From IMG/VR virus record IMGVR_UViG_2609460218_000002: 15,862 nt of DNA. One strand, given 5' to 3'. The translations under genes and the position numbers were made by a program. Origin of the DNA: a virus (taxonomy: Duplodnaviria > Heunggongvirae > Uroviricota > Caudoviricetes). Positions within the stretch are counted from its first letter, which is position 1. Each line of letters begins with the position of its first letter. The notes beneath the pieces are model-generated. The model was not told where the DNA came from and did not search any database. It worked only from the letters and a program-made list of their open reading frames with translations. Shown here one piece after another: positions 1 through 15,655 of this stretch.

Positions 1-1
1 A

Positions 2-247
2 GCGTTACGGGACAAAGAACGCTTTGACGGTGAAATTTTTGACCTGGACATCTCGCTGGACCATGTTGAAGGTGCCGCGCTGGAGTTTTATGAGGCAGCA
101 GCCAGAAGGAGCATCAGACAGGTCTTCCTGGATGTTGCTGCCGGGTTATGTGAAGGGGACGAGCTGTTGCCAGAAACGCGACCCTGTTCAGAGGCTCGGT
201 ATACCATAAAAATTAACAGTTCAGATAACTCGATTACGGGTTGTTAG
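2..247 (+). CDS. Hypothetical soluble acidic protein, 5' end outside window (possibly YdfR/DUF1327-like)
   Basis: Frame 2 is open from the window edge to TAG at 245-247 (82 codons) and reads as protein-like (ALRDKERFDGEIFDLDISLDHVEGAALEFYEAAARRSIRQVF...). The track ORF 24..209 is in another frame and looks off-frame (W/C-rich). It sits just upstream of the endolysin, where Qin carries ydfR; the family assignment is from memory. Confidence 0.4.
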   Translation, partial: ALRDKERFDGEIFDLDISLDHVEGAALEFYEAAARRSIRQVFLDVAAGLCEGDELLPETRPCSEARYTIKINSSDNSITGC

Positions 248-302
248 CTTTTTGCAGTTGGCTTTCCAGTATCTTTCATTGGTAGCATCCTGATAAATAT
301 CC

Positions 303-1330
<1,028 letters not shown>

Positions 1331-1512
1331 GGTAATATTAAATCGGAACATTTACATCGCGGAATGTAAAATTTAAATAAAAAGGACTCTTCCATGAGCC
1401 AAAATTCCTGAAATCTTAAGGGTAAGATAAAAGGTCTTAATCAGAATGACACGTTTTATTAATAAATAAAGCTATTCTTTCATTGCTGTGTTTTTCTTTA
1501 CAAAAGTAATCC

Positions 1513-1541
1513 TTGCTATGGGTGGTTAATCATGCGTTAAT
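1513..1541 (+). promoter_or_regulatory. Putative sigma70 promoter of the cold-shock gene (-35 TTGCTA, 17-bp spacer, -10 GTTAAT)
   Basis: TTGCTA at 1513-1518 and GTTAAT at 1536-1541, with an AT-rich UP-like tract upstream (about 1440-1512). The predicted start near 1548 leaves a leader of about 145 nt, as expected for CspA-family cold-shock genes. A TATAAT at 1585-1590 is an alternative. Confidence 0.4.
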
Positions 1542-1692
1542 GGTGTTCTGGTTTGTTACAAATTTATCTGAAGCAGTCATTGTTATAATTTTATTATTTG
1601 TACCTCTTGAGATTTCCTTGTTGGTTTTTCTCTCTGATANTTTTTTTCGGACCATTCTGCCCAAGGNCTAATTTCTTCAAAAGGTAATAATT

Positions 1693-1905
1693 ATGTCTAA
1701 CAAAATGACTGGTTTAGTGAAATGGTTTAACCCTGAAAAAGGTTTTGGTTTCATCACGCCGAAAGATGGCAGCAAAGATGTGTTTGTCCATTTCTCAGCA
1801 ATTCAGAGCAACGATTTCAAAACATTAACTGAGAATCAGGAAGTTGAATTTGGTATTGAGAACGGACCTAAAGGTCCTGCCGCTGTTCATGTAGTGGCGC
1901 TTTGA
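1693..1905 (+). CDS. cspI: Cold-shock protein, CspA family (CspI-like)
   Basis: 70 aa. RNP1 (KGFGFI) and RNP2 (VFVHF) cold-shock-domain motifs. SD AAGG 8 nt upstream of ATG. Long AT-rich upstream leader. Gene order Rz - csp - small ORFs - gnsB - ydfO matches Qin, hence cspI rather than another csp paralog. Confidence 0.9.
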
Positions 1906-1993
1906 GGTAGACAATATTACAAACCATATTCACTTTAGATGCCCGTGTTGTCATGGTTCCCAGTATAGAACATCATCTTTTGATGTTTCTGAC

Positions 1994-2104
1994 ATGAATC
2001 CTTTCGGGGCAAAATGTATCTTTTGTAAATCAATGATGATTACATTTGATAATATTTCACAATACTTAAATGCCAGCCGTCTGTCGTTGGATTTAAAAAA
2101 GTGA
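1994..2104 (+). CDS. Small zinc-ribbon-like ORF (CxxC...CxxC); upstream extension likely
   Basis: The frame is open from 1895 to TGA at 2102-2104 and reads ...HFRCPCCHGSQYRTSSFDVSDMNPFGAKCIFCKSMMITFDNISQYLNASRLSLDLKK. Two CxxC pairs about 20 residues apart. The first in-frame ATG (1994) lies after the first CPCC motif and there is no in-frame ATG/GTG/TTG upstream, so the true start is unclear. The ORF ends 7 nt before an intrinsic terminator. Below the track size cut-off. Confidence 0.3.
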   Translation: MNPFGAKCIFCKSMMITFDNISQYLNASRLSLDLKK

Positions 2105-2110
2105 AAATGA

Positions 2111-2132
2111 AGGCTCCTTCGGGAGCTTTTTT
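2111..2132 (+). terminator. Rho-independent terminator ending the cspI transcription unit
   Basis: Stem GCTCC (2113-2117) / GGAGC (2122-2126) with a UUCG tetraloop, extendable by A-U and G-U pairs, followed by TTTTTT (2127-2132). Confidence 0.6.
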
Positions 2133-2176
2133 GCTTGGTGTCTATTCGATGGATACTCACATACTACGGTAACATC

Positions 2177-2407
2177 ATGAAAAAAATCATAGNTTTTTTT
2201 AACTCTGAACCAGCAGTGGTAGTGCCAGCGATGACTGGAGTTAACACCATCATGCGTGAATATCCAAATGGCGAAAAAACACACCTTACTGTAATGGCCG
2301 CAGGGTTTCCATCTCTGACCGGAGATCATAAAGTCATTTATGTAGCCGCGGATCGACATGTTACTTCAGAAGAAATTCTGGAAGCAGCAATAAGGCTCTT
2401 GAGTTGA
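2177..2407 (+). CDS. Hypothetical 76-aa protein (possibly YnfN/YmcE-like, partner of GnsB)
   Basis: Track ORF 2135..2407 begins with TTG inside the terminator T-run, so the ATG at 2177 (MKKII...) is preferred. Protein-like composition. The minus-strand track ORF 2093..2359 is W/C/H-rich and judged spurious. Contains one N (2193). Confidence 0.5.
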   Translation: MKKIIXFFNSEPAVVVPAMTGVNTIMREYPNGEKTHLTVMAAGFPSLTGDHKVIYVAADRHVTSEEILEAAIRLLS

Positions 2408-2501
2408 TTTGATGCTATTGCATTGATAATTCAGGAAAATTCTCTTTGTCTGTTTGTGTAAAATTTAGACTATCGTATGTTGATTATTGCGATGTTTCAT
2501 C

Positions 2502-2530
2502 TTATCTTTTACACGTTTGCACCATATAAT
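2502..2530 (+). promoter_or_regulatory. Putative promoter upstream of the gnsB-like gene (-10 TATAAT at 2525-2530)
   Basis: Perfect TATAAT at 2525-2530. Candidate -35 elements are weak (TTATCT at 2502-2507 with 17-bp spacing; TTTACA at 2508-2513 with too-short spacing). Confidence 0.3.
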
Positions 2531-2578
2531 CGACTTACTGTGTAACTGGAAAGTCATAACAGACTAAAAGAGGAAATG

Positions 2579-2752
2579 ATGAATATTGAAAACTTAAAAA
2601 CAAAAGCAGAAGCAGATATTTCTGAATATATAACAAAAAAAATTATTGAACTTAAGAAAAAGACCGGGAAAGAAGTTACCAGTATTCAGTTTACCGCACG
2701 GGAAAAAATGACGGGTCTTGAAAGCTATGATGTCAAGATTAATTTAATCTGA
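2579..2752 (+). CDS. gnsB: GnsA/GnsB-family small protein
   Basis: 57 aa: MNIENLKTKAEADISEYITKKIIELKKKTGKEVTSIQFTAREKMTGLESYDVKINLI. Tandem ATGs at 2576 and 2579, with AGAGGA SD best spaced for 2579. I recognise the GnsA/GnsB family by its conserved C-terminal REKMTGLESYDVKI motif. Not in the ORF track (below size cut-off). Confidence 0.8.
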   Translation: MNIENLKTKAEADISEYITKKIIELKKKTGKEVTSIQFTAREKMTGLESYDVKINLI

Positions 2753-2781
2753 TGTATTCAATAATAAAATTTATCCATAAA

Positions 2782-2805
2782 CCTCGTTTTTACGGGGTTT
2801 TGTTA
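2782..2805 (+). terminator. Putative rho-independent terminator after the gnsB-like gene
   Basis: Stem CCTCGT (2782-2787) / ACGGGG (2792-2797) with one G-U pair, loop TTTT, then a T-rich tract. Confidence 0.5.
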
Positions 2806-2866
2806 TATTTGAATGGTTCCGAATATCTAAATCACAATTGTTGATGGTTTTTATTAAACCAATGCA

Positions 2867-2895
2867 GTCCGGCTCAGGAGTGAGAGAAGCCGGAC
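2867..2895 (-). terminator. Hairpin directly after the ydfO-like stop (candidate terminator for the minus-strand unit)
   Basis: 8-bp perfect inverted repeat GTCCGGCT (2867-2874) / AGCCGGAC (2888-2895) with a 13-nt loop, 8 nt beyond the minus-strand stop codon. The downstream U-tract on the minus strand is weak. Confidence 0.4.
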
Positions 2896-2903
2896 GTTAT
2901 GGT

Positions 2904-3314
2904 TTAGCGTGGTAAGATCTGTGTAGTTTTCTGGATGCTTTCAGTAAATAGTAATGAATTATCAAAGGTATAGTAATATCTTTTTTGTTCGTGGATATTT
3001 GTAACCCACCGAAAAACTCCTGCTTTAGCAAGGTTTCTTCTGTATTCCTGAAATGTGATCTCTCTGGATTTCAGCTTATTAGAGGTCGTTTCTATAAGAT
3101 GCCTATCCTTTGAAAATTTGACAGACACAATGTTTTTTAGGCCCTTTAATAACACTGTATTATCATTTTTTAATACAATATGAACATTCTCTGTGGCTAA
3201 ATAGTAAATGTAATGTGAGACATTGTGACGTTTTAGCTCAGAATAAAACCATTGATAGTTTAAATCGTTTCGAACTTTATCAAATATTTGTTTAAAAATG
3301 ACTACCTGATCCAT
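2904..3314 (-). CDS. ydfO: YdfO-like protein (DUF1398 family), function unknown
   Basis: Track ORF 2904..3329 (141 aa). A GGAAGG SD sits 7 nt upstream of the second ATG (3314), so a 136-aa product is preferred. The sequence ([40 protein letters not shown]...) matches my recollection of E. coli YdfO from Qin. Confidence 0.8.
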
Positions 3315-3371
3315 AGATAAACCTTCCATGTGATATGAGGGGGCGTAGTCTGCACGATTATCTAAATTTCT

Positions 3372-3605
3372 TCAATCTGGTCTGACCTGTTTTCTGAGCA
3401 ATTCAGTAATGTCACTCTTTTCTTTGTTTGCTTCAGAAGAAACTCTTTTTTCTGAGCACAGTCTCCGGCGGCAGGCTTCAATGACCCAGGCTGAGAAATT
3501 CCCGGACCCTTTTTGCTCAAGAGCGATGTTAATTTGTTCAATCATTTGGTTAGGAAAGCGGATGTTGCGGGTTGTTGTTCTGCGGGTTCTGTTCTTCGTT
3601 GACAT
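3372..3605 (-). CDS. DUF3950-family small DNA-binding protein with predicted ribbon-helix-helix fold (YlcI/YnfO-like)
   Basis: 77 aa. Basic N-terminus (MSTKNRTRRTTTRNIRF) followed by a strand-helix-helix pattern (NIRFPNQ / MIEQINIALEQ / NFSAWVIEACRRRL), consistent with an Arc/CopG-like RHH fold. Co-oriented with and 57 bp upstream of the ydfO-like gene. Matches my recollection of YlcI/YnfO proteins found next to nohD/nohQ in K-12 prophages. Confidence 0.8.
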   Translation of the reverse strand: MSTKNRTRRTTTRNIRFPNQMIEQINIALEQKGSGNFSAWVIEACRRRLCSEKRVSSEANKEKSDITELLRKQVRPD

Positions 3606-3699
3606 GAGGTTGTCCCGTATTCAGTGTCGCTGATTTGTATTGTCTGAAGTTGTTTTTACGTTAAGTTGATGCAGATCAATTAATACGATATCTGCGTCA

Positions 3700-3990
3700 T
3701 AATTGATTATTTGACGTGGTTTGATTGCGTAGATGCACGTTGTGACATGCAGATGATAATTATTATCATTTTGCGGGTCCTTTCCGGCGATCCGACAGGT
3801 TACGGGGCGGCGCCTCGCGGGTTTTCGCTATTTATGAAAATTTTCCGGTTTAAGGCATTTCCGTTCTTCTTCGTCGTAACTTAATGTTTTTATTTAAAAT
3901 ACCCCCTGAAAAGAAAGGAAACGACAGGTGCTGAAAACGAGCTTTTGGGCCTCTGTCGTTTCCTTTCTCTGTTTTTGGCCGTGGAATGAA
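3700..3990 (+). other. cos site of lambda type (cosQ, cosN, cosB with Nu1-binding R elements)
   Basis: 3640-3803 matches the lambda right end (...GGGTCCTTTCCGGCGATCCGACAGGTTACG). cosN at about 3805-3815 reads GGGCGGCG-CCT against the lambda cohesive end GGGCGGCGACCT. Downstream, AAAGGAAACGACAG (3914-3927) and its inverted copy CTGTCGTTTCCTTT (3953-3966) correspond to the Nu1-binding R3/R2 elements. A 17-bp palindrome ATGATAATTATTATCAT lies at 3752-3768. The internal cos shows prophage or concatemer topology. Confidence 0.85.
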
Positions 3991-3992
3991 CA

Positions 3993-4512
3993 ATGGAAGT
4001 CAACAAAAAGCAGCTGGCTGACATTTTCGGTGCGAGTATCCGTACCATTCAGAACTGGCAGGAACAGGGAATGCCCGTTCTGCGAGGCGGTGGCAAGGGT
4101 AATGAGGTGCTTTATGACTCTGCCGCCGTTATAAGATGGTATGCCGAAAGGGATGCTGAAATTGAGAACGAAAAGCTGCGCCGGGAAGTTGAAGAACTGC
4201 GGCAGGCCAGCGAGACAGATCTCCAGCCAGGGACTATTGAGTACGAACGCCATCGACTTACGCGTGCGCAGGCCGACGCACAGGAGCTGAAAAATGCCAG
4301 AGACTCCGCTGAAGTGGTGGAAACCGCATTCTGTACTTTCGTGCTGTCGCGGATCGCAGGTGAAATTGCCAGTATTCTCGACGGGATCCCCCTGTCGGTG
4401 CAGCGGCGTTTTCCGGAACTGGAAAACCGACATGTTGATTTCCTGAAACGGGATATCATCAAAGCCATGAACAAAGCAGCCGCGCTGGATGAACTGATAC
4501 CGGGGTTGCTGA

Positions 4513-4538
<26 letters not shown>
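3993..4538 (+). CDS. nu1: Terminase small subunit Nu1
   Basis: 181 aa, near-identical to lambda gpNu1 as I recall it (MEVNKKQLADIFGASIRTIQNWQEQGMPVLRGGGKGNEV...; N-terminal HTH DNA-binding domain), with only a few substitutions. Directly downstream of cosB. Confidence 0.97.
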
Positions 4539-8219
<3,681 letters not shown>

Positions 8220-8239
<20 letters not shown>

Positions 8240-9539
8240 TCTCCCGCATATTGCCAGCATGGCTTTTAATGAGCCGCTGATGCTTGAACCCGCCTATGCG
8301 CGGGTTTTCTTTTGTGCGCTTGCAGGCCAGCTTGGGATCAGCCGCCTGACGGATGCGGTGTCCGGCGACAGCCTGACTGCCCAGGAGGCACTCGCGACGC
8401 TGGCATTATCCGGTGATGATGACGGACCACGACAGGCCCGCAGTTATCAGGTCATGAACGGCATCGCCGTGCTGCCGGTGTCCGGCACGCTGGTCAGCCG
8501 GACGCGGGCGCTGCAGCCGTACTCGGGGATGACCGGTTACAACGGCATTATCGCCCGTCTGCAACAGGCTGCCAGCGATCCGATGGTGGACGGCATTCTG
8601 CTCGATATGGACACGCCCGGCGGGATGGTGGCGGGGGCATTTGACTGCGCTGACATCATCGCCCGTGTGCGTGACATAAAGCCGGTATGGGCGCTGGCCA
8701 ATGACATGAACTGCAGCGCAGGTCAGCTGCTTGCCAGTGCCGCCTCCCGGCGTCTGGTCACGCAGACCGCCCGAACAGGCTCCATCGGCGTCATGATGGC
8801 TCACAGTAATTACGGCGCTGCACTGGAGAAACAGGGCGTGGAAATCACGCTGATTTACAGCGGCAGCCATAAGGTGGATGGCAACCCCTACAGCCATCTA
8901 CCGGATGATGTCCGGGAAACATTGCAGTCCCGGATGGATGCAACCCGCCGGATGTTTGCACAGAAGGTGTCGGCATATACCGGCCTGTCCGTGCAGGCTG
9001 TGCTGGATACCGAGGCTGCAGTGTACAGCGGTCAGGAGGCCATTGATGCCGGACTGGCTGATGAACTTGTCAACAGCACCGATGCGATCACCGTTATGCG
9101 TGATGCACTGGATGCACGTAAATCCCGTCTCTCAGGAGGGCGAATGACCAAAGAGACTCAATCAACAACTGTTTCAGCCACTGCTTCGCAGGCTGACGTT
9201 ACTGACGTGGTGCCAGCGACGGAGGGCGAAAACGCCAGCGCGGCGCAGCCGGACGTGAACGCGCAGATCACCGCTGCGGTTGCGGCAGAAAACAGCCGCA
9301 TTATGGGGATCCTCAACTGTGAGGAGGCTCACGGACGCGAAGAACAGGCCCGCGTGCTGGCAGAAACCCCCGGTATGACCGTGGAAACGGCCCGCCGCAT
9401 TCTGGCAGCTGCACCACAGAGTGCACAGGCGCGCAGTGACACTGCGCTGGATCGTCTGATGCAGGGGGCACCGGCACCGCTGGCTGCAGGTAACCCGGCA
9501 TCTGATGCCGTTAACGATTTGCTGAACACACCAGTGTAA
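8220..9539 (+). CDS. C: Head maturation protease C (S49/ClpP-like capsid assembly protease)
   Basis: GTG start at 8220 (MTAELRNLPHIASMAFNEPL...), 439 aa, matching lambda gpC. Overlaps the B stop. The track ORF 8085..9539 over-extends the start upstream. Confidence 0.95.
9144..9539 (+). CDS. nu3: Scaffolding protein Nu3, in-frame internal initiation within C
   Basis: Strong internal SD AGGAGG (9134-9139) 4 nt before ATG 9144 (MTKETQSTTVSATASQ...), same frame and same stop as C. An alternative internal in-frame ATG is at 8934; I am not certain which is the annotated lambda nu3 start. Confidence 0.6.
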   Translation: MTKETQSTTVSATASQADVTDVVPATEGENASAAQPDVNAQITAAVAAENSRIMGILNCEEAHGREEQARVLAETPGMTVETARRILAAAPQSAQARSDTALDRLMQGAPAPLAAGNPASDAVNDLLNTPV

Positions 9540-9548
9540 GGGATGTTT

Positions 9549-9881
9549 ATGACGAGCAAAGAAACCTTTACCCATTACCAGCCGCTGGGCAATAGTGACC
9601 CGGCTCATACCGCAACCGCGCCCGGCGGATTGAGTGCGAAAGCGCCTGCAATGACCCCGCTGATGCTGGACACATCCACCCGTAAGCTGGTTGCGTGGGA
9701 TGGCACCACCGACGGTGCTGCCGTTGGCATTCTTGCGGTTGCTGCTGACCAGACCAGCACCACACTGACGTTCTACAAGTCCGGCACGTTCCGTTATGAG
9801 GATGTGCTCTGGCCGGAGGCTGCCAGCGACGAGACGAAAAAACGGACCGCGTTTGCCGGAACGGCAATCAGCATCGTTTAA
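9549..9881 (+). CDS. D: Head decoration protein D
   Basis: 110 aa ([52 protein letters not shown]...), matching lambda gpD. SD AGGGA 6 nt upstream. The track ORF starts two codons early. Confidence 0.95.
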
Positions 9882-9901
9882 CTTTACCCTTCATCACTAA
9901 A

Positions 9902-9924
9902 GGCCGCCTGTGCGGNCTTTTTTT
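9902..9924 (+). terminator. GC-rich hairpin plus T-run between D and E (terminator-like)
   Basis: GGCCGC (9902-9907) / GCGGNC (9912-9917) with loop CTGT, followed by TTTTTTT. One stem base is N (9916), and another N lies at 9931. Confidence 0.45.
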
Positions 9925-9938
9925 ACGGGANTTTTTTT

Positions 9939-10964
9939 ATGTCGATGTACACAACCGCCCAGCTGCTGGCGGCAAATGAGCAGAAATTTAAGTTTGATCC
10001 GCTGTTTCTGCGTCTCTTTTTCCGTGAGAGCTATCCCTTCACTACGGAGAAAGTCTATCTCTCACAAATTCCGGGACTGGTAAACATGGCGCTGTACGTT
10101 TCGCCGATTGTTTCCAGTGAGGTTATCCGTTCCCGTGGCGGCTCCACCTCTGAATTTACGCCGGGATATGTCAAACCCAAGCATGAGTTGAATCCGCAGA
10201 TGACCCTGCGTCGCCTGCCGGATGAAGATCCGCAGAATCTGGCGGACCCGGCTTACCGCCGCCGTCGCATCATCATGCAGAACATGCGTGACGAAGAGCT
10301 GGCCATTGCTCAGGTCGAAGAGATGCAGGCAGTTTCTGCCGTGCTCAAGGGCAAATACACCATGACCGGTGAAGCCTTCGATCCGGTTGAGGTGGATATG
10401 GGCCGCAGTGCGGCGAACAACATCACACAGTCCGGCGTCACGGAGTGGAGCAAGCGTGACAAGTCCACGTATGACCCGACCGACGATATCGAAGCCTACG
10501 CGCTGAACGCCAGCGGTGTGGTGAATATCATCGTGTTTGACCCGAAAGGCTGGGCGCTGTTCCGTTCCTTCAAAGCCGTCAAGGAGAAGCTGGATACCCG
10601 TCGCGGCTCTCATTCCGAGCTGGAGACAGCGGTGAAAGACCTGGGCAAAGCGGTGTCCTATAAGGGAATGTATGGCGATGTGGCCATCGTCGTGTATTCC
10701 GGACAGTACGTGGAAAACGGCGTCAAAAAGAACTTCCTGCCGGACAACACGATGGTGCTGGGGAACACTCAGGCTCGCGGTCTGCGCACCTATGGCTGCA
10801 TTCAGGATGCGGACGCACAGCGCGAAGGCATTAACGCCTCTGCCCGTTACCCGAAAAACTGGGTGACCACCGGCGATCCGGCGCGTGAGTTCACCATGAT
10901 TCAGTCAGCACCGCTGATGCTGCTGGCTGACCCTGATGAGTTCGTGTCCGTTCAACTGGCGTAA
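9939..10964 (+). CDS. E: Major capsid protein E
   Basis: 341 aa (MSMYTTAQLLAANEQKFKFDPLFLRLFFRESYPFTTEKVYLSQIPGLVNMALYV...), matching lambda gpE. Confidence 0.97.
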   Translation: MSMYTTAQLLAANEQKFKFDPLFLRLFFRESYPFTTEKVYLSQIPGLVNMALYVSPIVSSEVIRSRGGSTSEFTPGYVKPKHELNPQMTLRRLPDEDPQNLADPAYRRRRIIMQNMRDEELAIAQVEEMQAVSAVLKGKYTMTGEAFDPVEVDMGRSAANNITQSGVTEWSKRDKSTYDPTDDIEAYALNASGVVNIIVFDPKGWALFRSFKAVKEKLDTRRGSHSELETAVKDLGKAVSYKGMYGDVAIVVYSGQYVENGVKKNFLPDNTMVLGNTQARGLRTYGCIQDADAQREGINASARYPKNWVTTGDPAREFTMIQSAPLMLLADPDEFVSVQLA

Positions 10965-11005
10965 TCATGGCCCTTCGGGGCCATTTTCTCTCTGTGGAGG
11001 AGTTC

Positions 11006-11404
11006 ATGACGAAAGATGAACTGATTGCCCGTCTTCAGGAGCTGGGTGAGCAACTGAACCGCGATGTCAGTTTGACGGGAACGAAAGAAGAACTGGCGCT
11101 TCGTGTGGCAGAGCTGGAAGAAGAGCTTGATGACACGGATGAAACTGCCGGTCAGGACACCCCTCTCAGCCGGGAAAATGTGCTGACCGGGCATGAAAAT
11201 GAGGTGGTATCAGCGCAGCCGGATACCGTGATTCAGGATACGGCTGAACTGGTCACGGTCGTGGCACTGGTGACGCTGCATACTGATGCACTTCACGCCA
11301 CGCGGGATAAACCTGTGGCATTTGTGCTGCCGGGAACGGCGTTTCGTGTCTCTGCCGGTGTGGCAGCCGAAATGACAGAGCGCGGCCTGGCCAGAATGCA
11401 ATAA
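11006..11404 (+). CDS. FI: DNA packaging protein FI
   Basis: Start at ATG 11006 (MTKDELIARLQELGEQLNRDVSLTGTKEELALRVAELEEELDD...) with GGAGG SD 5 nt upstream; 132 aa as in lambda gpFI. The track ORF 10967..11404 begins at an upstream in-frame ATG without an SD. Confidence 0.93.
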   Translation: MTKDELIARLQELGEQLNRDVSLTGTKEELALRVAELEEELDDTDETAGQDTPLSRENVLTGHENEVVSAQPDTVIQDTAELVTVVALVTLHTDALHATRDKPVAFVLPGTAFRVSAGVAAEMTERGLARMQ

Positions 11405-11415
11405 CGGGAGGCGCT

Positions 11416-11769
11416 GTGGCTGATTTCGATAACCTGTTCGATGCTGCCATTGCCCGCGCCGATGAAACGATACGCGGGTACATGGGAACGTCAGCCACCA
11501 TTACATCCGGTGAGCAGTCAGGTGCGGTGATACGTGGTGTTTTTGATGACCCTGAAAATATCAGCTATGCCGGACAGGGCGTGCGCGTTGAAGGCTCCAG
11601 CCCGTCCCTGTTTGTCCGGACTGATGATGCGCGGCAGCTGCGGCGTGGAGACACGCTGACCATCGGTGAGGAAAATTTCTGGGTAGATCGGGTTTCGCCG
11701 GATGATGGCGGAAGTTGTCATCTCTGGCTTGGACGGGGCGTACCGCCTGCCGTTAACCGTCGCCGCTGA
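11416..11769 (+). CDS. FII: Head-tail connector (head completion) protein FII
   Basis: 117 aa, GTG start, matching lambda gpFII (MADFDNLFDAAIARADETIRGYMGTSATITSGEQSG...). Confidence 0.95.
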   Translation: MADFDNLFDAAIARADETIRGYMGTSATITSGEQSGAVIRGVFDDPENISYAGQGVRVEGSSPSLFVRTDDARQLRRGDTLTIGEENFWVDRVSPDDGGSCHLWLGRGVPPAVNRRR

Positions 11770-11780
11770 AAGGGGGATGT

Positions 11781-12358
11781 ATGGTCATAAAAGGTCTTGA
11801 GCAGGCCGTTGAAAACCTCAGCCGTATCAGCAAAACGGCGGTGCCTGGTGCCGCCGCAATGGCCATTAACCGCGTTGCTTCATCCGCGATATCGCAGTCG
11901 GCGTCACAGGTTGCCCGTGAGACAAAGGTACGCCGGAAACTGGTAAAGGAAAGGGCCAGGCTGAAAAGGGCCACGGTCAAAAATCCGCAGGCCAGAATCA
12001 GGTTAACCGGGGGGATTTGCCCGTAATAAAGCTGGGTAACGCGCGGATTGTCCTGTCCCGACGCAGGCATCGTAAAAAGGGGCAGCGTTCANGCCTGAAA
12101 GGTGGCGGCAGCGTGCTTGTGGTGGGAAACCGTCGTATTCCCGGCGCGTTTATTCAGCAACTGAAAAATGGCCGCTGGCATGTCATGCAGCGTGTGGCCG
12201 GGAAAAACCGTTACCCCATTGATGTGGTGAAAATCCCGATGGCGGTGCCGCTGACCACGGCGTTTAAACAGAATATTGAACGGATACGGCGTGAACGTCT
12301 TCCGAAAGAGCTGGGCTATGCGCTGCAGCATCAACTGAGAATGGTAATAAAGCGATGA
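11781..12358 (+). pseudogene. Z: Tail completion protein Z, interrupted by an apparent 1-nt frameshift at about 12000
   Basis: Track ORF 11781..12026 matches the gpZ N-terminus up to ...NPQARI, then terminates. The remainder (...VNRGDLPVIKLGNARIVLSRRR...LRMVIKR) continues in the +2 frame through 12358. One N at 12092. May be a sequence error. Confidence 0.8.
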
Positions 12359-12750
12359 AACATACTGAACTCCGTGCAGCCGTACTGGATGCACTGGAGA
12401 AGCATGACACCGGGGCGACGCTTTTTGATGGTCGCCCCGCTGTTTTTGATGAGGCGGATTTTCCGGCAATTGCCGTTTATCTCACCGGCGCTGAATACAC
12501 GGGCGAAGAGCTGGACAGCGATACCTGGCAGGCGGAGCTGCATATTGAAGTTTTCCTGCCTGCTCAGGTGCCGGATTCAGAGCTGGATTCGTGGATGGAG
12601 TCCCGGATTTATCCGGTGATGAGCGATATCCCGGCACTGTCAGATTTGATCACCAGTATGGTGGCCAGCGGCTATGACTACCGGCGCGACGATGATGCGG
12701 GCCTGTGGAGTTCAGCCGATCTGACTTATGTCATTACCTATGAAATGTGA
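12355..12750 (+). CDS. U: Tail terminator (tail tube terminator) protein U
   Basis: 131 aa (MKHTELRAAVLDALEKHDTGATLFDGRPAVFDEADFPAIAVYLTGAEYTGEELDSD...), matching lambda gpU. ATGA overlap with the end of Z. Confidence 0.95.
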   Translation: MKHTELRAAVLDALEKHDTGATLFDGRPAVFDEADFPAIAVYLTGAEYTGEELDSDTWQAELHIEVFLPAQVPDSELDSWMESRIYPVMSDIPALSDLITSMVASGYDYRRDDDAGLWSSADLTYVITYEM

Positions 12751-12757
12751 GGACGCT

Positions 12758-13498
12758 ATGCCTGTACCAAATCCAGTAATGCCGGTGAAAGGGGCCGGGA
12801 CCACACTGTNGGTTTATAAGGGGAACGGTGANCCTTATGCGAACCCGCTTTCAGACGTTGACTGGTCGCGTCTGGCTAAAGTTAAAGACCTGACGCCCGG
12901 CGAACTGACCGCTGAGTCCTATGACGACAGCTATCTCGATGATGAAGATGCGGACTGGACTGCGACCGGGCAGGGGCAGAAATCTGCCGGAGATACCAGC
13001 TTCACGCTGGCGTGGATGCCCGGAGAGCAGGGGCAGCAGGCGCTGCTGGCGTGGTTTAATGAAGGGGATACCCGAGCCTATAAAATCCGCTTCCCGAATG
13101 GCACGGTCGATGTGTTCCGCGGCTGGGTCAGCAGTATCGGTAAGGCGGTGACGGCGAAGGAAGTGATCACCCGCACGGTGAAGGTCACCAATGTGGGCCG
13201 TCCGTCGATGGCAGAAGATCACAGCACGGTCACAGCGGCAACCGGCATGACCGTGACGCCTGCCAGCACCTCGGTGGTGAAAGGGCAGAGCACCACGCTG
13301 ACCGTGGCATTCCAGCCGGAAGGCGCAACCGACAAGAGCTTCCGTGCGGTGTCAGCGGATAAAACAAAAGCCACCGTGTCGGTCAGTGGTATGACCATCA
13401 CCGTGAAAGGTGTTGCTGCAGGCAAGGTCAACATTCCGGTCGTATCCGGTAATGGTGAACTTGCTGCGGTTGCAGAAATCAACGTCACCGCCAGTTAA
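12758..13498 (+). CDS. V: Major tail tube protein V (with C-terminal Ig-like domain)
   Basis: Start at ATG 12758 ([17 protein letters not shown]...), 246 aa as in lambda gpV. C-terminal part is Thr/Val-rich, Ig-like. Two N at 12810 and 12832. The track ORF begins at an upstream in-frame ATG. Confidence 0.95.
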
Positions 13499-13513
13499 TC
13501 CGGAGAGTCAGCG

Positions 13514-13936
13514 ATGTTCCTGAAAACCGAATCATTTGAACATAACGGTGTGACCGTCACGCTTTCTGAACTGTCAGCCCTGCAGCGTATTGAGCATCTC
13601 GNCCTGATGAAACGGCAGGCAGAACAGGCGGAGTCAGACAGCAACCGGAAGTTTACTGTGGAAGACGCCATCAGAACCGGTGCTTGTGTGGTGGCGATGT
13701 CCCTGTGGCATAACCATCCGCAGAAGACGCAGATGCCTTCCATGAATGAAGCCGTTAAACAGATTGAGCAGGAAGTGCTTACCACCTGGCCTACAGAGGC
13801 AATTTCTCATGCTGAAAACGTGGTGTACCGGCTGTCCGGTATGTATGAGTTTGTGGTGAATGATGCCCCTGAACAGGCAGAGGACGCCGGGCCTGCAGAG
13901 CCTGTTTCTGCGGGAAAGTGTTCGACGGTGAGCTGA
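13514..13936 (+). CDS. G: Tail assembly chaperone G
   Basis: 140 aa (MFLKTESFEHNGVTVTLSELSALQRIEHL...), matching lambda gpG. One N at 13602. Confidence 0.95.
   Translation: MFLKTESFEHNGVTVTLSELSALQRIEHLXLMKRQAEQAESDSNRKFTVEDAIRTGACVVAMSLWHNHPQKTQMPSMNEAVKQIEQEVLTTWPTEAISHAENVVYRLSGMYEFVVNDAPEQAEDAGPAEPVSAGKCSTVS
13912..13918 (+). promoter_or_regulatory. Programmed -1 ribosomal frameshift slippery heptamer GGGAAAG (G to G-T fusion)
   Basis: GGGAAAG at 13912-13918 near the 3' end of G, where the -1 frame (T) is open. This is the conserved tail-chaperone frameshift of lambda-like phages. Confidence 0.85.
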
Positions 13937-14352
13937 GTTTTGCCCTGAAACTGGCGCGCGAGATGGGGCGACCCGACTGGCGTGCCATGCTTGCCGGGAT
14001 GTCATCCACGGAGTATGCCGACTGGCACCGCTTTTACAGTACCCATTATTTTCATGATGTTCTGCTGGATATGCACTTTTCCGGGCTGACGTACACCGTG
14101 CTCAGCCTGTTTTTCAGCGATCCGGATATGCATCCGCTGGATTTCAGTCTGCTGAACCGGCGCGAGGCTGACGAAGAGACTGAAGATGATGTGCTGATGC
14201 AGAAAGCGGCAGGGCTTGCCGGAGGCGTTCGTTTTGGCCCGGACGGGAATGAAGTTATCCCCGCTTCCCCGGATGTGGCGGACATGACGGAGGATGACGT
14301 AATGCTGATGACAGTATCAGAAGGGATCGCAGGAGGAGTCCGGTATGGCTGA
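13918..14352 (+). CDS. T: T segment of the G-T tail assembly chaperone fusion (expressed by -1 frameshift from G)
   Basis: Open -1 frame 13918..14352 matching lambda gpT (…LSFALKLAREMGRPDWRAMLAGMSSTEYADWHRFYSTHYF...). No independent initiation expected. Confidence 0.9.
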   Translation: MFDGELSFALKLAREMGRPDWRAMLAGMSSTEYADWHRFYSTHYFHDVLLDMHFSGLTYTVLSLFFSDPDMHPLDFSLLNRREADEETEDDVLMQKAAGLAGGVRFGPDGNEVIPASPDVADMTEDDVMLMTVSEGIAGGVRYG

Positions 14353-15655
14353 ACCGGTAGGCGATCTGGTCGTTGATTTAAGTCTGGATGCGGCCAGATT
14401 TGACGAGCAGATGGCCAGAGTCAGGCGTCATTTTTCCGGTACGGAAACTGATGCGAAAAAAACAGCGGCAGTCGTTGAACAGTCGCTGAGCCGACAGGCG
14501 CTGGCTGCACAGAAAGCGGGGATTTCCGTCGGGCAGTATAAAGCCGCCATGCGTATGCTGCCTGCACAGTTCACCGACGTGGCCACGCAGCTTGCAGGCG
14601 GGCAAAGTCCGTGGCTGATCCTGCTGCAACAGGGTGGTCAGGTTAAGGACTCCTTCGGCGGGATGATCCCCATGTTCAGGGGGCTTGCCGGTGCGATCAC
14701 CCTGCCGATGGTGGGGGCCACCTCGCTGGCGGTGGCGACCGGTGCGCTGGCGTATGCCTGGTATCAGGCAACTCAACCCTGTCCGATTTCAACAAAACGC
14801 TGGTCCTTTCCGGCAATCAGGCGGGACTGACGGCAGATCGTATTCTGGCCCTGTCCAGAGCCGGGCAGGCGGCAGGGCTGACGTTTAACCAGACCAGCGA
14901 GTCACTGACGGCGCTGGTGAATGCCGGTGTGCGTGGTGGTGAGCAGTTTGAGGCGATCAGCCAGAGTGTGGCGCGTTTCTCCTCTGCATCCGGCGTGGAG
15001 GTGGACAAGGTCGCTGAAGCCTTCGGGAAGCTGACCACAGACCCGACGTCGGGACTGACAGCGATGGCACGTCAGTTCCATAACGTGACGGCGGAGCAGA
15101 TTGCGTATGTTGCTCAGTTGCAGCGTTCCGGAGATGAAGCCGGGGCATTGCAGGCGGCGAACGAGGCCGCAACGAAAGGGTTTGATGACCAGACCCGCCG
15201 CCTGAAAGAGAACATGGGCACGCTGGAGACCTGGGCAGACAGGACAGCACGGGCATTCAAATCCATGTGGGATTCGGTGCTGGATATTGGTCGCCCGGAC
15301 ACTGCCCAGGGAATGCTGGAGAAAGCAGAAAAGGCTTTTGATGAGGCGGACAAAAAATGGCAGTGGTATCAGAGCCGAAGCCACCGGCGCGGTAAAACCT
15401 CAGCATTTCTTGCCAATCTCCGGGGAGCATGGGAGGACAGAGCGAATGCGCAACTTNGGCTTTCAGCCGCCACGTTGCAGGCCGATCTTGAAAAGGCCAG
15501 AGAGATGGCAGCAAAGGACTGGGCCGAGTCTGAGGCATCACGGCTGAAATATACCGAAGAGGCGCAGAAGGCTTACGAACGCCTGCAGACGCCGCTGGAG
15601 AAATATACCGCCCGTCAGGAAGAACTGAACAAGGCACTGAAAGACGGGAAAATCC
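14345..15655 (+). pseudogene. H: Tail tape measure protein H, disrupted by an apparent 1-nt frameshift (about 14767) and truncated by IS1 insertion at 15656
   Basis: Track ORF 14345..14830 matches the lambda gpH N-terminus to ...AYAWYQ. The gpH sequence (GNSTLSDFNKTLVLSGNQAGLTADR...) then continues in the -1 frame, which the track picks up as ORF 14917..15660. That frame ends at a TAG (15658-15660) created by the IS1 terminal repeat, about 437 codons into a gene that is about 853 codons in lambda. One N at 15457. Confidence 0.85.

Follow-up and report, generated by a model that had tools for sequence, protein, structure and literature searches.

Introduction

In Escherichia coli, translation from AUU is established for very few genes: a 2016 preprint names infC and pcnB as the only confirmed AUU starts and reports that AUU, AUC and AUA start translation in reporters at approximately 1-2% of the AUG level (10.1101/063800). 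At the thrS-infC junction, UAA GGU AUU, reporters put about half of second-cistron initiation on reinitiation (PMC3592434). Two small E. coli proteins are also relevant here, YmcF, from the chromosomal paralogous locus cspG-ymcF-ymcE-gnsA (bioRxiv 10.1101/2024.03.27.586906), and YnfU, a protein with 'a pair of zinc knuckles' known from ribosome profiling (bioRxiv 10.1101/511675). We analyzed an open frame that follows the cold-shock gene cspI in a 15,862-nt stretch of Caudoviricetes DNA (IMG/VR record IMGVR_UViG_2609460218_000002), referred to below as the window. This frame is ynfQ, the prophage paralogue of the chromosomal gene ymcF. RefSeq, UniProt and Pfam already have on record the gene, its family and its ATT start at position 1916. 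What is new is limited to a suggestive comparative link, in which the start codon appears as AUU or AUC with an intact CspA-family gene (csp) upstream and as AUG without one.

The cspI-ynfQ junction, UGA GGU AGA CAA U AUU, resembles that of thrS-infC in that a rare AUU opens the second cistron a few nucleotides after an upstream stop codon, which overlaps or adjoins a GG-containing Shine-Dalgarno sequence, and in that the non-AUG start is conserved across genera. The two junctions differ in their gap (3 nt for infC, 10 nt between the cspI stop and the ATT of ynfQ), and the AUU of infC senses IF3 autoregulation, whereas no such feedback logic is evident for ynfQ. In addition, the infC start is confirmed, whereas the start of YmcF and YnfQ is known from annotation and comparison. 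YmcF of the E. coli chromosome (locus L056) has the same length of 62 aa as YnfQ, is 65% identical to it with the same CPCCHGSQYR...GAKCIFCK, and has an ATT start 10 nt past a CspA-family gene's stop codon. The operons are parallel, cspG-ymcF-ymcE-gnsA against cspI-ynfQ-ynfR-ynfN-gnsB. YnfQ differs from YmcF in its location on Qin-like lambdoid prophages and free phages, in Met27, and in a divergent C-terminal tail.

Identity of the open frame as ynfQ

Read directly from the sequence, the frame comprises 69 codons (1895-2101) between an in-frame TAG at 1892-1894 and a TGA at 2102-2104, with a translation that contains CIFCK and ends in LKK. A sequence-only reading of this DNA had described it as an unannotated, zinc-ribbon-like micro-ORF (open reading frame) with the motifs CPCC...CIFC, and translation bears out both the frame and the motifs. 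The frame is, however, annotated, and RefSeq, UniProt and Pfam entries all cover it. The RefSeq feature under it is 'ynfQ / ymcF: cold shock small protein YmcF', flanked by cspI, ynfR and ynfN; in the DH5alpha record (L001), the coding sequence (CDS) WP_071524604.1 spans 2767-2955, which corresponds to window 1916-2104, and base 2767 opens the ATT codon. The exact 62-aa product is UniProt YNFQ_ECOLI, 'Protein YnfQ', and is found on at least 1000 contigs. Residues 1-62 match positions 1-62 of the Pfam profile PF23641 (YmcF-like) with 111.8 bits (cut-off 27, E 1.7e-32). Among 5.8 billion proteins searched, there were 132 homologues, all with PF23641, nearly all from Enterobacteriaceae and most of exactly 62 aa. 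The NCBIfam scan of the frame gave no match to a dedicated hidden Markov model (HMM), only a sub-threshold hit to ECs_2282_CxxC (E 0.0029, 17.5 bits, cut-off 37), and the RefSeq name was presumably set by another kind of rule than an NCBIfam HMM.

The gene name has been used for two different proteins. In VanOrsdel et al. 2018, 'ynfQ' denotes a membrane-like protein of 37 aa encoded between ydfJ and ydfK (PMC6001520 Table 1), whose coordinates now stand under ynfT (PMC11551758 Table 2), and it is distinct from the cspI-adjacent ynfQ described here. No paper giving the original description of ymcF/ynfQ or of the ATT start was found in the literature searched, and neither gene is mentioned in the Weaver preprint (bioRxiv 10.1101/511675), the tetracycline ribosome-profiling paper or the EcoGene 3.0 paper.

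The sequence-only reading had raised ynfU as a possible identity, and this candidate was rejected. YnfU (MSERKNSKSRRNYLVKCSCPNCTQESEHSFSRVQKGALLICPHCNKVFQTNLKAVA, 56 aa) has its gene outside the window, upstream of essD on the other strand, and it belongs to the family NF038384/PF23499, matching NF038384 at 1.1e-22; hhalign of the YmcF alignment against YnfU gave a probability of 1.4%. The two proteins are alike in being small and prophage-encoded and in having two CxxC knuckles approximately 20 residues apart, but they have no detectable sequence relationship and YnfU starts at ATG.

Conservation of the coding frame

To assess the frame in its relatives, it was rebuilt in 80 loci, one genome per species, out of approximately 140 species-level loci. 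These loci encode 64 unique proteins, and nonsynonymous (pN) and synonymous (pS) divergence was taken over 2828 pairs. The pS values of 0.68-0.97 are near saturation, against pN values of 0.10-0.19, with a median pN/pS of 0.17. At the level of sequence comparison, this pattern demonstrates that the predicted frame is coding and under strong purifying selection. Residues 9-18 (CPCCHGSQYR) and 31-38 (GAKCIFCK, within a wider NPxGAKCIFCK) are invariant or nearly so in the homologues, and His13 is nearly invariant in their alignment. Because of the 132 homologues, the full-length Pfam match and the purifying selection, the frame is far beyond chance. The sequence-only reading had let its case depend on whether orthologues keep the reading frame and the Cys positions; both are clearly kept across the 80 loci, and family membership and selection together confirm that the frame is genuine.

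As an alternative, the frame could be a pseudogene or an artefact of sequencing, with its start codon lost or a base missing upstream. The base quality is open to doubt to the extent that the window contains 12 isolated N characters (1059, 1640, 1667, 2193, 6357, 9916, 9931, 12092, 12810, 12832, 13602 and 15457), one of them in rzpQ, two in the cspI 5' untranslated region (UTR) and one in ynfN, but none falls in ynfQ or anywhere within 1895-2104. Moreover, window 1650-2450 matches 2148 records from 2147 of the 5426 complete E. coli genomes by megablast, with at least 99% identity in 1522 complete genome records, and the same ATT/ATC architecture recurs in dozens of species from Escherichia to Dickeya. 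We regard an artefact as hardly credible.

Assigned initiation at ATT 1916

The frame has no ATG, GTG or TTG ahead of its first Cys codon, as had been pointed out, and the ATG at 1994 is the only one of these codons in all 69. Three options had been left for the start, namely a non-canonical codon, a 36-aa half-ribbon or a missing base, and only the first agrees with the RefSeq start and with the homologous loci. The codon aligned to position 1916 in the 80 loci is ATT in 54, ATC in 4 and ATG in 22, with nothing else seen, and it is preceded in every locus by a Shine-Dalgarno sequence (AAGG, GAGG or GGAG) at a distance of 6-9 nt. Comparatively, the case for 1916 as the initiation codon is strong, since Klebsiella, Raoultella, Enterobacter, Leclercia and Silvania have ATG at precisely this position. 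In the window, an in-frame TAG stands 7 codons upstream of the ATT with no ATG, GTG or TTG between them. The upstream stop and the ATG at the aligned codon together imply that ATT and ATC act as near-cognate starts in the other loci. ynfQ itself has the features of such a start, since it has no canonical initiation codon, its ATT lies at the correct spacing from the Shine-Dalgarno sequence, and the ATT interchanges with ATG in orthologues. The assignment of the YnfQ start to ATT 1916 rests on curated annotation and comparative analysis.

If the product were instead the 36-aa peptide from ATG 1994, it would be a half-ribbon with CIFC only. This ATG has in its favor that it is the sole canonical in-frame start. 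However, it has no Shine-Dalgarno sequence before it, the curated annotation starts at 1916, and codons 2-26, including those for CPCCHGSQYR, are under strong purifying selection. Met27 is confined to the Qin-type copy, and the other homologues have K, E, R, Q, S, G, A or N at this residue. The 36-aa product was rejected as a conserved gene and is very improbable as the real product.

Association of the start codon with an upstream csp gene

An intact CspA-family gene lies on the same strand with its stop codon 9-10 nt upstream in 48 of the 80 loci, and the start codon in these is ATT (44 loci) or ATC (4 loci) and never ATG. Both TAA and TGA occur as the csp stop, the last two bases of which form the Shine-Dalgarno sequence together with the following GG, and this stop-GG motif (TAAGG or TGAGG) is kept at the same distance in the aligned csp-coupled loci. 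In the 32 loci without an intact csp immediately upstream, an ATG is present at codon 1 or 2 in 25, and ATT only in 7. The ATT/ATC architecture is seen in Escherichia, Citrobacter, Salmonella, Kosakonia, Scandinavium, Yokenella, Trabulsiella, Siccibacter and Dickeya; in Dickeya lacustris, a species outside the Enterobacteriaceae that was added as a separate look-up, the order is csp-TAA-AGGA...ATT with the csp stop 11 nt upstream. The pairing of a cold-shock chaperone with a Cys-containing mini-protein, which the sequence-only reading had called unusual, is in fact the ancestral norm of the family, as found in cspG-ymcF, in the 48 loci and in Dickeya.

ATG is found in five genus-level groups, four of them among these 32 loci and the fifth being Kluyvera. 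The ATG loci of Klebsiella and Raoultella retain a decayed but alignable csp remnant upstream, and Enterobacter, Leclercia and Silvania form an ATG group without an intact csp. Kluyvera, a second additional look-up, has an ATG start and no same-strand csp, and Atlantibacter has ATT-ATG at codons 1-2 and no intact csp. In Citrobacter sedlakii NBRC 105722 (L008 1297-1689), the YmcF homologue starts at ATG and a degenerate csp is fused in frame upstream. The fused csp reads VKEFN for VKWFN and VFVPSS for VFVHFS, its conserved aromatics are gone and its stop has been removed by a 3' deletion; it reflects either the decay of csp or an error in assembly.

ynfQ is the second cistron of a cold-inducible cspI-ynfQ-ynfR-ynfN transcript, in which a GAGGU Shine-Dalgarno sequence overlapping the cspI stop and a 7-nt spacer lead to AUU 1916. 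The AUU would be read as formylmethionine, giving the product MTNHIHFRCPCCHG... (62 aa; initiator Met, then TNHIHF...). Because AUU is weak in reporters and a poor competitor in vitro, we propose that ribosomes that have just terminated on the highly translated csp supply most of the AUU/AUC initiations, either by termination-reinitiation or through a locally high ribosome concentration. The output of YnfQ would then be tied to Csp translation at a low fixed ratio, and loss of csp would make an AUG necessary. We infer the coupling of AUU initiation to csp translation from the sequence comparison and by analogy. The explanation as a whole, namely the identity as ynfQ, the AUU 1916 start, the position as second cistron of the cspI operon, a small protein with metal knuckles and a csp-coupled AUU, is in our judgment highly probable.

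Several points weigh against this proposal. Direct experimental mapping of the AUU start by start-site ribosome profiling, N-terminal sequencing or mutagenesis was not found in the literature searched, and mRNA that starts with AUU is a poor competitor in vitro, above all at low temperature (PMC5499595), an odd property for a cold-shock gene. ATT also persists where no intact csp is present, in a clade of Pseudescherichia metagenome-assembled genomes (MAGs) and in one Citrobacter freundii genome. The cases of Shimwellia and Enterobacter ludwigii can be read either way, as they have an in-frame ATG 7 codons upstream but still show the ancestral AAGGT-N7-ATT/ATC. The loci are phylogenetically related, so that they amount to approximately 5 independent ATT-to-ATG switches and not to 80 observations; the direction of these switches is consistent. 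At the ynfQ junction, the single-sequence fold is no better than that of shuffled sequences (z = -0.87), and RNAalifold on 18 diverse coupled loci found no conserved structure around the csp-ynfQ junction. Finally, de novo initiation might need no more than the strong Shine-Dalgarno sequence.

On the fold results, we rejected a conserved hairpin that masks the Shine-Dalgarno sequence or the start and is opened by csp translation. Since there is no conserved RNA structure for csp translation to open, any coupling would act by proximity and not by unmasking.

A serious rival is that the AUU is used by ordinary de novo 30S initiation, recruited by the strong GAGGU independently of cspI translation, with the rare codon setting a low, IF3-sensitive level and the adjacency to csp being historical. 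It draws on the good Shine-Dalgarno sequence at 7 nt, on a start site that is not occluded by structure, on the ATT that the Pseudescherichia clade and locus L078 keep despite lacking an intact csp, and on the reporter work in which about half of the initiation at infC-type junctions was de novo (PMC3592434). It has difficulty in explaining why ATT/ATC accompanies an intact csp in 48 of 48 loci and ATG its absence in 25 of 32, through approximately 5 independent switches. We consider this rival quite possible, while preferring csp-fed initiation at the AUU.

Six of the loci with ATT and no csp (L017, L019, L020, L023, L025 and L027, at ~1482-1508; five Pseudescherichia and one unclassified Enterobacteriaceae MAG) carry an out-of-frame mini-ORF of 8 codons, ATGAAAAAAGGATACTATTATTACTAA, which spans the Shine-Dalgarno sequence and ends just past the ATT. 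This mini-ORF might serve as a coupling partner in place of csp.

Operon structure and cold-shock context

The features of the locus are collected in Table 1. The cspA thermoregulator element recognized by Rfam forms the start of a cold-inducible transcript that also carries ynfQ, and the terminator pattern scan found no terminator between cspI and ynfQ. In published transcriptomics, ynfQ is listed as 'Qin prophage, cold shock induced', and the induction of cspI (6.5-fold), ynfQ (5.9-fold) and ynfN (5.8-fold) is closely similar, with matching SspA dependence (PMC11228462). The co-transcription with cspI claimed by the sequence-only reading is borne out by this shared induction and by the lack of an intervening terminator.

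Table 1. Features at the cspI-ynfQ locus, in window coordinates.
Feature	Position	Strand	Description	Evidence
cspA thermoregulator RNA	1547-1932	+	cspI 5' UTR and mRNA body; full model 1-428	Rfam RF01766, 107.9 bits (gathering 78), E 2.5e-28
cspI CDS	1693-1905	+	70 aa, CspA-family cold-shock protein; stop TGA 1903-1905	ORF list; NCBIfam CspG/CspA matches, E 1e-40; RefSeq
ynfQ Shine-Dalgarno GAGGT	1904-1908	+	overlaps cspI stop codon; 7 nt ahead of ATT	read from sequence
ynfQ CDS	1916-2104	+	62 aa, YmcF-like; ATT start 1916-1918, TGA stop 2102-2104	RefSeq, UniProt, Pfam
First metal knuckle (putative)	1940-1954	+	C9-P-C11-C12-H13, within CPCCHGSQYR	conservation in 64 unique proteins from 80 loci
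Internal ATG (Met27)	1994-1996	+	start not conserved	homologue alignment; no Shine-Dalgarno
Second metal knuckle (putative)	2015-2026	+	C34-I-F-C37, within GAKCIFCK	conservation in homologue alignment
ynfR	2107-2172	+	21 aa, next cistron; starts 3 nt after ynfQ stop	RefSeq
Terminator-like hairpin	2112-2132	+	GGCUCC-UUCG-GGAGCU and U-run, inside ynfR	fold -14.9 kcal/mol, z = -2.7
ynfN	2177-2407	+	76 aa, downstream operon member	RefSeq

A terminator had also been predicted after the frame, at 2111-2132, and folding reveals a GC-rich hairpin with its core at 2112-2127, followed by a T-run to 2132. The pattern scan had listed this stem for the minus strand only, and the plus-strand hairpin was confirmed by folding. 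A YnfR-SPA fusion is strongly induced by cold shock (PMC6001520). Because ynfR spans the hairpin, this induction means that some transcripts read through to ynfR and ynfN, and the hairpin must be leaky or antiterminated. Its position inside ynfR raises the question of whether read-through to ynfN is set by Csp antitermination or by ynfR translation. YnfN homologues also come after YmcF homologues in Raoultella, Shimwellia and Enterobacter ludwigii.

In Shimwellia blattae, Enterobacter ludwigii and Atlantibacter, the YmcF-like gene has a divergent gene of the YnfU family (PF23499) approximately 130-490 nt upstream of it. Such pairs are located at 1204-1371 and 1501-1698 in locus L084, at 1205-1375 and 1501-1695 in L088, and at 836-1006 and 1495-1680 in L062. 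In Shimwellia blattae and Enterobacter ludwigii, csp genes are found near the pair, so that two unrelated CxxC families recur by csp genes and by each other.

Predicted fold and metal site

The AlphaFold2 model of YnfQ (predicted local distance difference test, pLDDT, of 74) has two beta-hairpin knuckles and a helix at residues 44-57. Its weak structural neighbors include zinc ribbons, namely the MqsA N-terminal domain (Foldseek E 0.36), TFIIE-alpha and a eukaryotic ribosomal large-subunit protein, and the modeled YnfQ would share with these zinc-ribbon/rubredoxin-like domains the arrangement of two CxxC knuckles on beta-hairpins. No significant remote sequence homology to solved structures was found, the best matches being a UvrA zinc-finger string and the Rieske box II (E 0.04-0.07). 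A zinc-ribbon-like fold is plausible on the model, and the earlier reading of a four-Cys zinc ribbon appears reasonable in the light of the modeled knuckles and their weak neighbors. The signature had been written as CPCC-x20-CIFC; the four-Cys pattern stands, but C12 and C34 are separated by 21 residues, and the first knuckle comprises three Cys and a His. YnfQ is most likely a small soluble protein in which the CPCCH and CIFC knuckles would hold one metal ion in a zinc-ribbon/rubredoxin-like fold with a short C-terminal helix. Our best guess is that it works as a partner of the RNA or ribosome machinery of cold shock and depends on metal for this.

The motif may alternatively bind iron or an Fe-S cluster in the manner of rubredoxin or Rieske proteins, in place of structural zinc, and YnfQ would then be a redox or iron-sensing protein. 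The string RCPCCHGSQY (window 1937-1966, residues 8-17) resembles the Rieske box II of cytochrome b6f (KCP-CHGSQY), and the profile matches this box at E 0.07 (KFKCP-CHGSQYN against HFRCPCCHGSQYR). Together with the near-invariant His13, this resemblance raises the possibility of Fe or Fe-S in place of Zn. In a 2026 review, the model of YnfQ is rubredoxin-like in topology and contains Fe2+ (PMC13348028). Against iron, the similarity to Rieske is short and lacks significance, and His is missing from the second knuckle, CIFCK. A Rieske [2Fe-2S] site comprises box I (CxHxGC) and box II (CPCHG), and YnfQ has only the box II-like CPCCHGSQY, box I with its CxH being absent. We consider binding of iron or an Fe-S cluster unlikely.

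Phage context and genome records

Over window 1-15655, the identity to intact Qin-like prophages (e.g. in strain MB22), which have terminase, portal, capsid and tape-measure genes, is 99.8%. The window as a whole is thus a Qin-like lambdoid prophage in intact form, in which terminase, portal, capsid and tail genes are present, and not the truncated, defective Qin of K-12. The free phages Tritos, PhiR42_1, 2H10 and mEp460 also carry ynfQ, often without annotation. Five phage records (H32-H35 and H37, among them PhiR42_1, PhiR63_1, 2H10 and mEp460_ev081) contain the YnfQ frame at 93-98% identity with no feature annotated. These unannotated copies are consistent with gene callers that disallow ATT starts. 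Three further records, a Veillonella parvula MAG (L003), a Mucilaginibacter MAG (L055) and a Chryseobacterium sp. (L080), carry csp-ymcF/ynfQ segments identical or nearly identical to Escherichia or Scandinavium loci, which looks like contamination or mis-binning in public assemblies.

Implications for the family

Gene callers limited to ATG, GTG and TTG miss the YmcF-like family. With its conserved near-cognate AUU/AUC start, ynfQ/ymcF provides a clean natural example of such initiation in E. coli beyond infC and pcnB. A more far-reaching idea is that selection keeps AUU/AUC only as long as an intact csp has its stop 9-11 nt ahead of the gene, with AUG taking over after csp decay, that the coupling is obligatory and proceeds by AUU-tolerant 70S/30S reinitiation, and that small metal-binding proteins such as YnfQ and YnfU are dedicated partners of CspA-family proteins in cold acclimation. 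Neither the selection rule nor the partner idea was found in the literature searched, and we consider this extended form doubtful. If it were true, the obligatory coupling to csp and the recurrent linkage of YnfU to csp paralogues would mean that small metal-binding proteins serve the CspA-family RNA chaperones.

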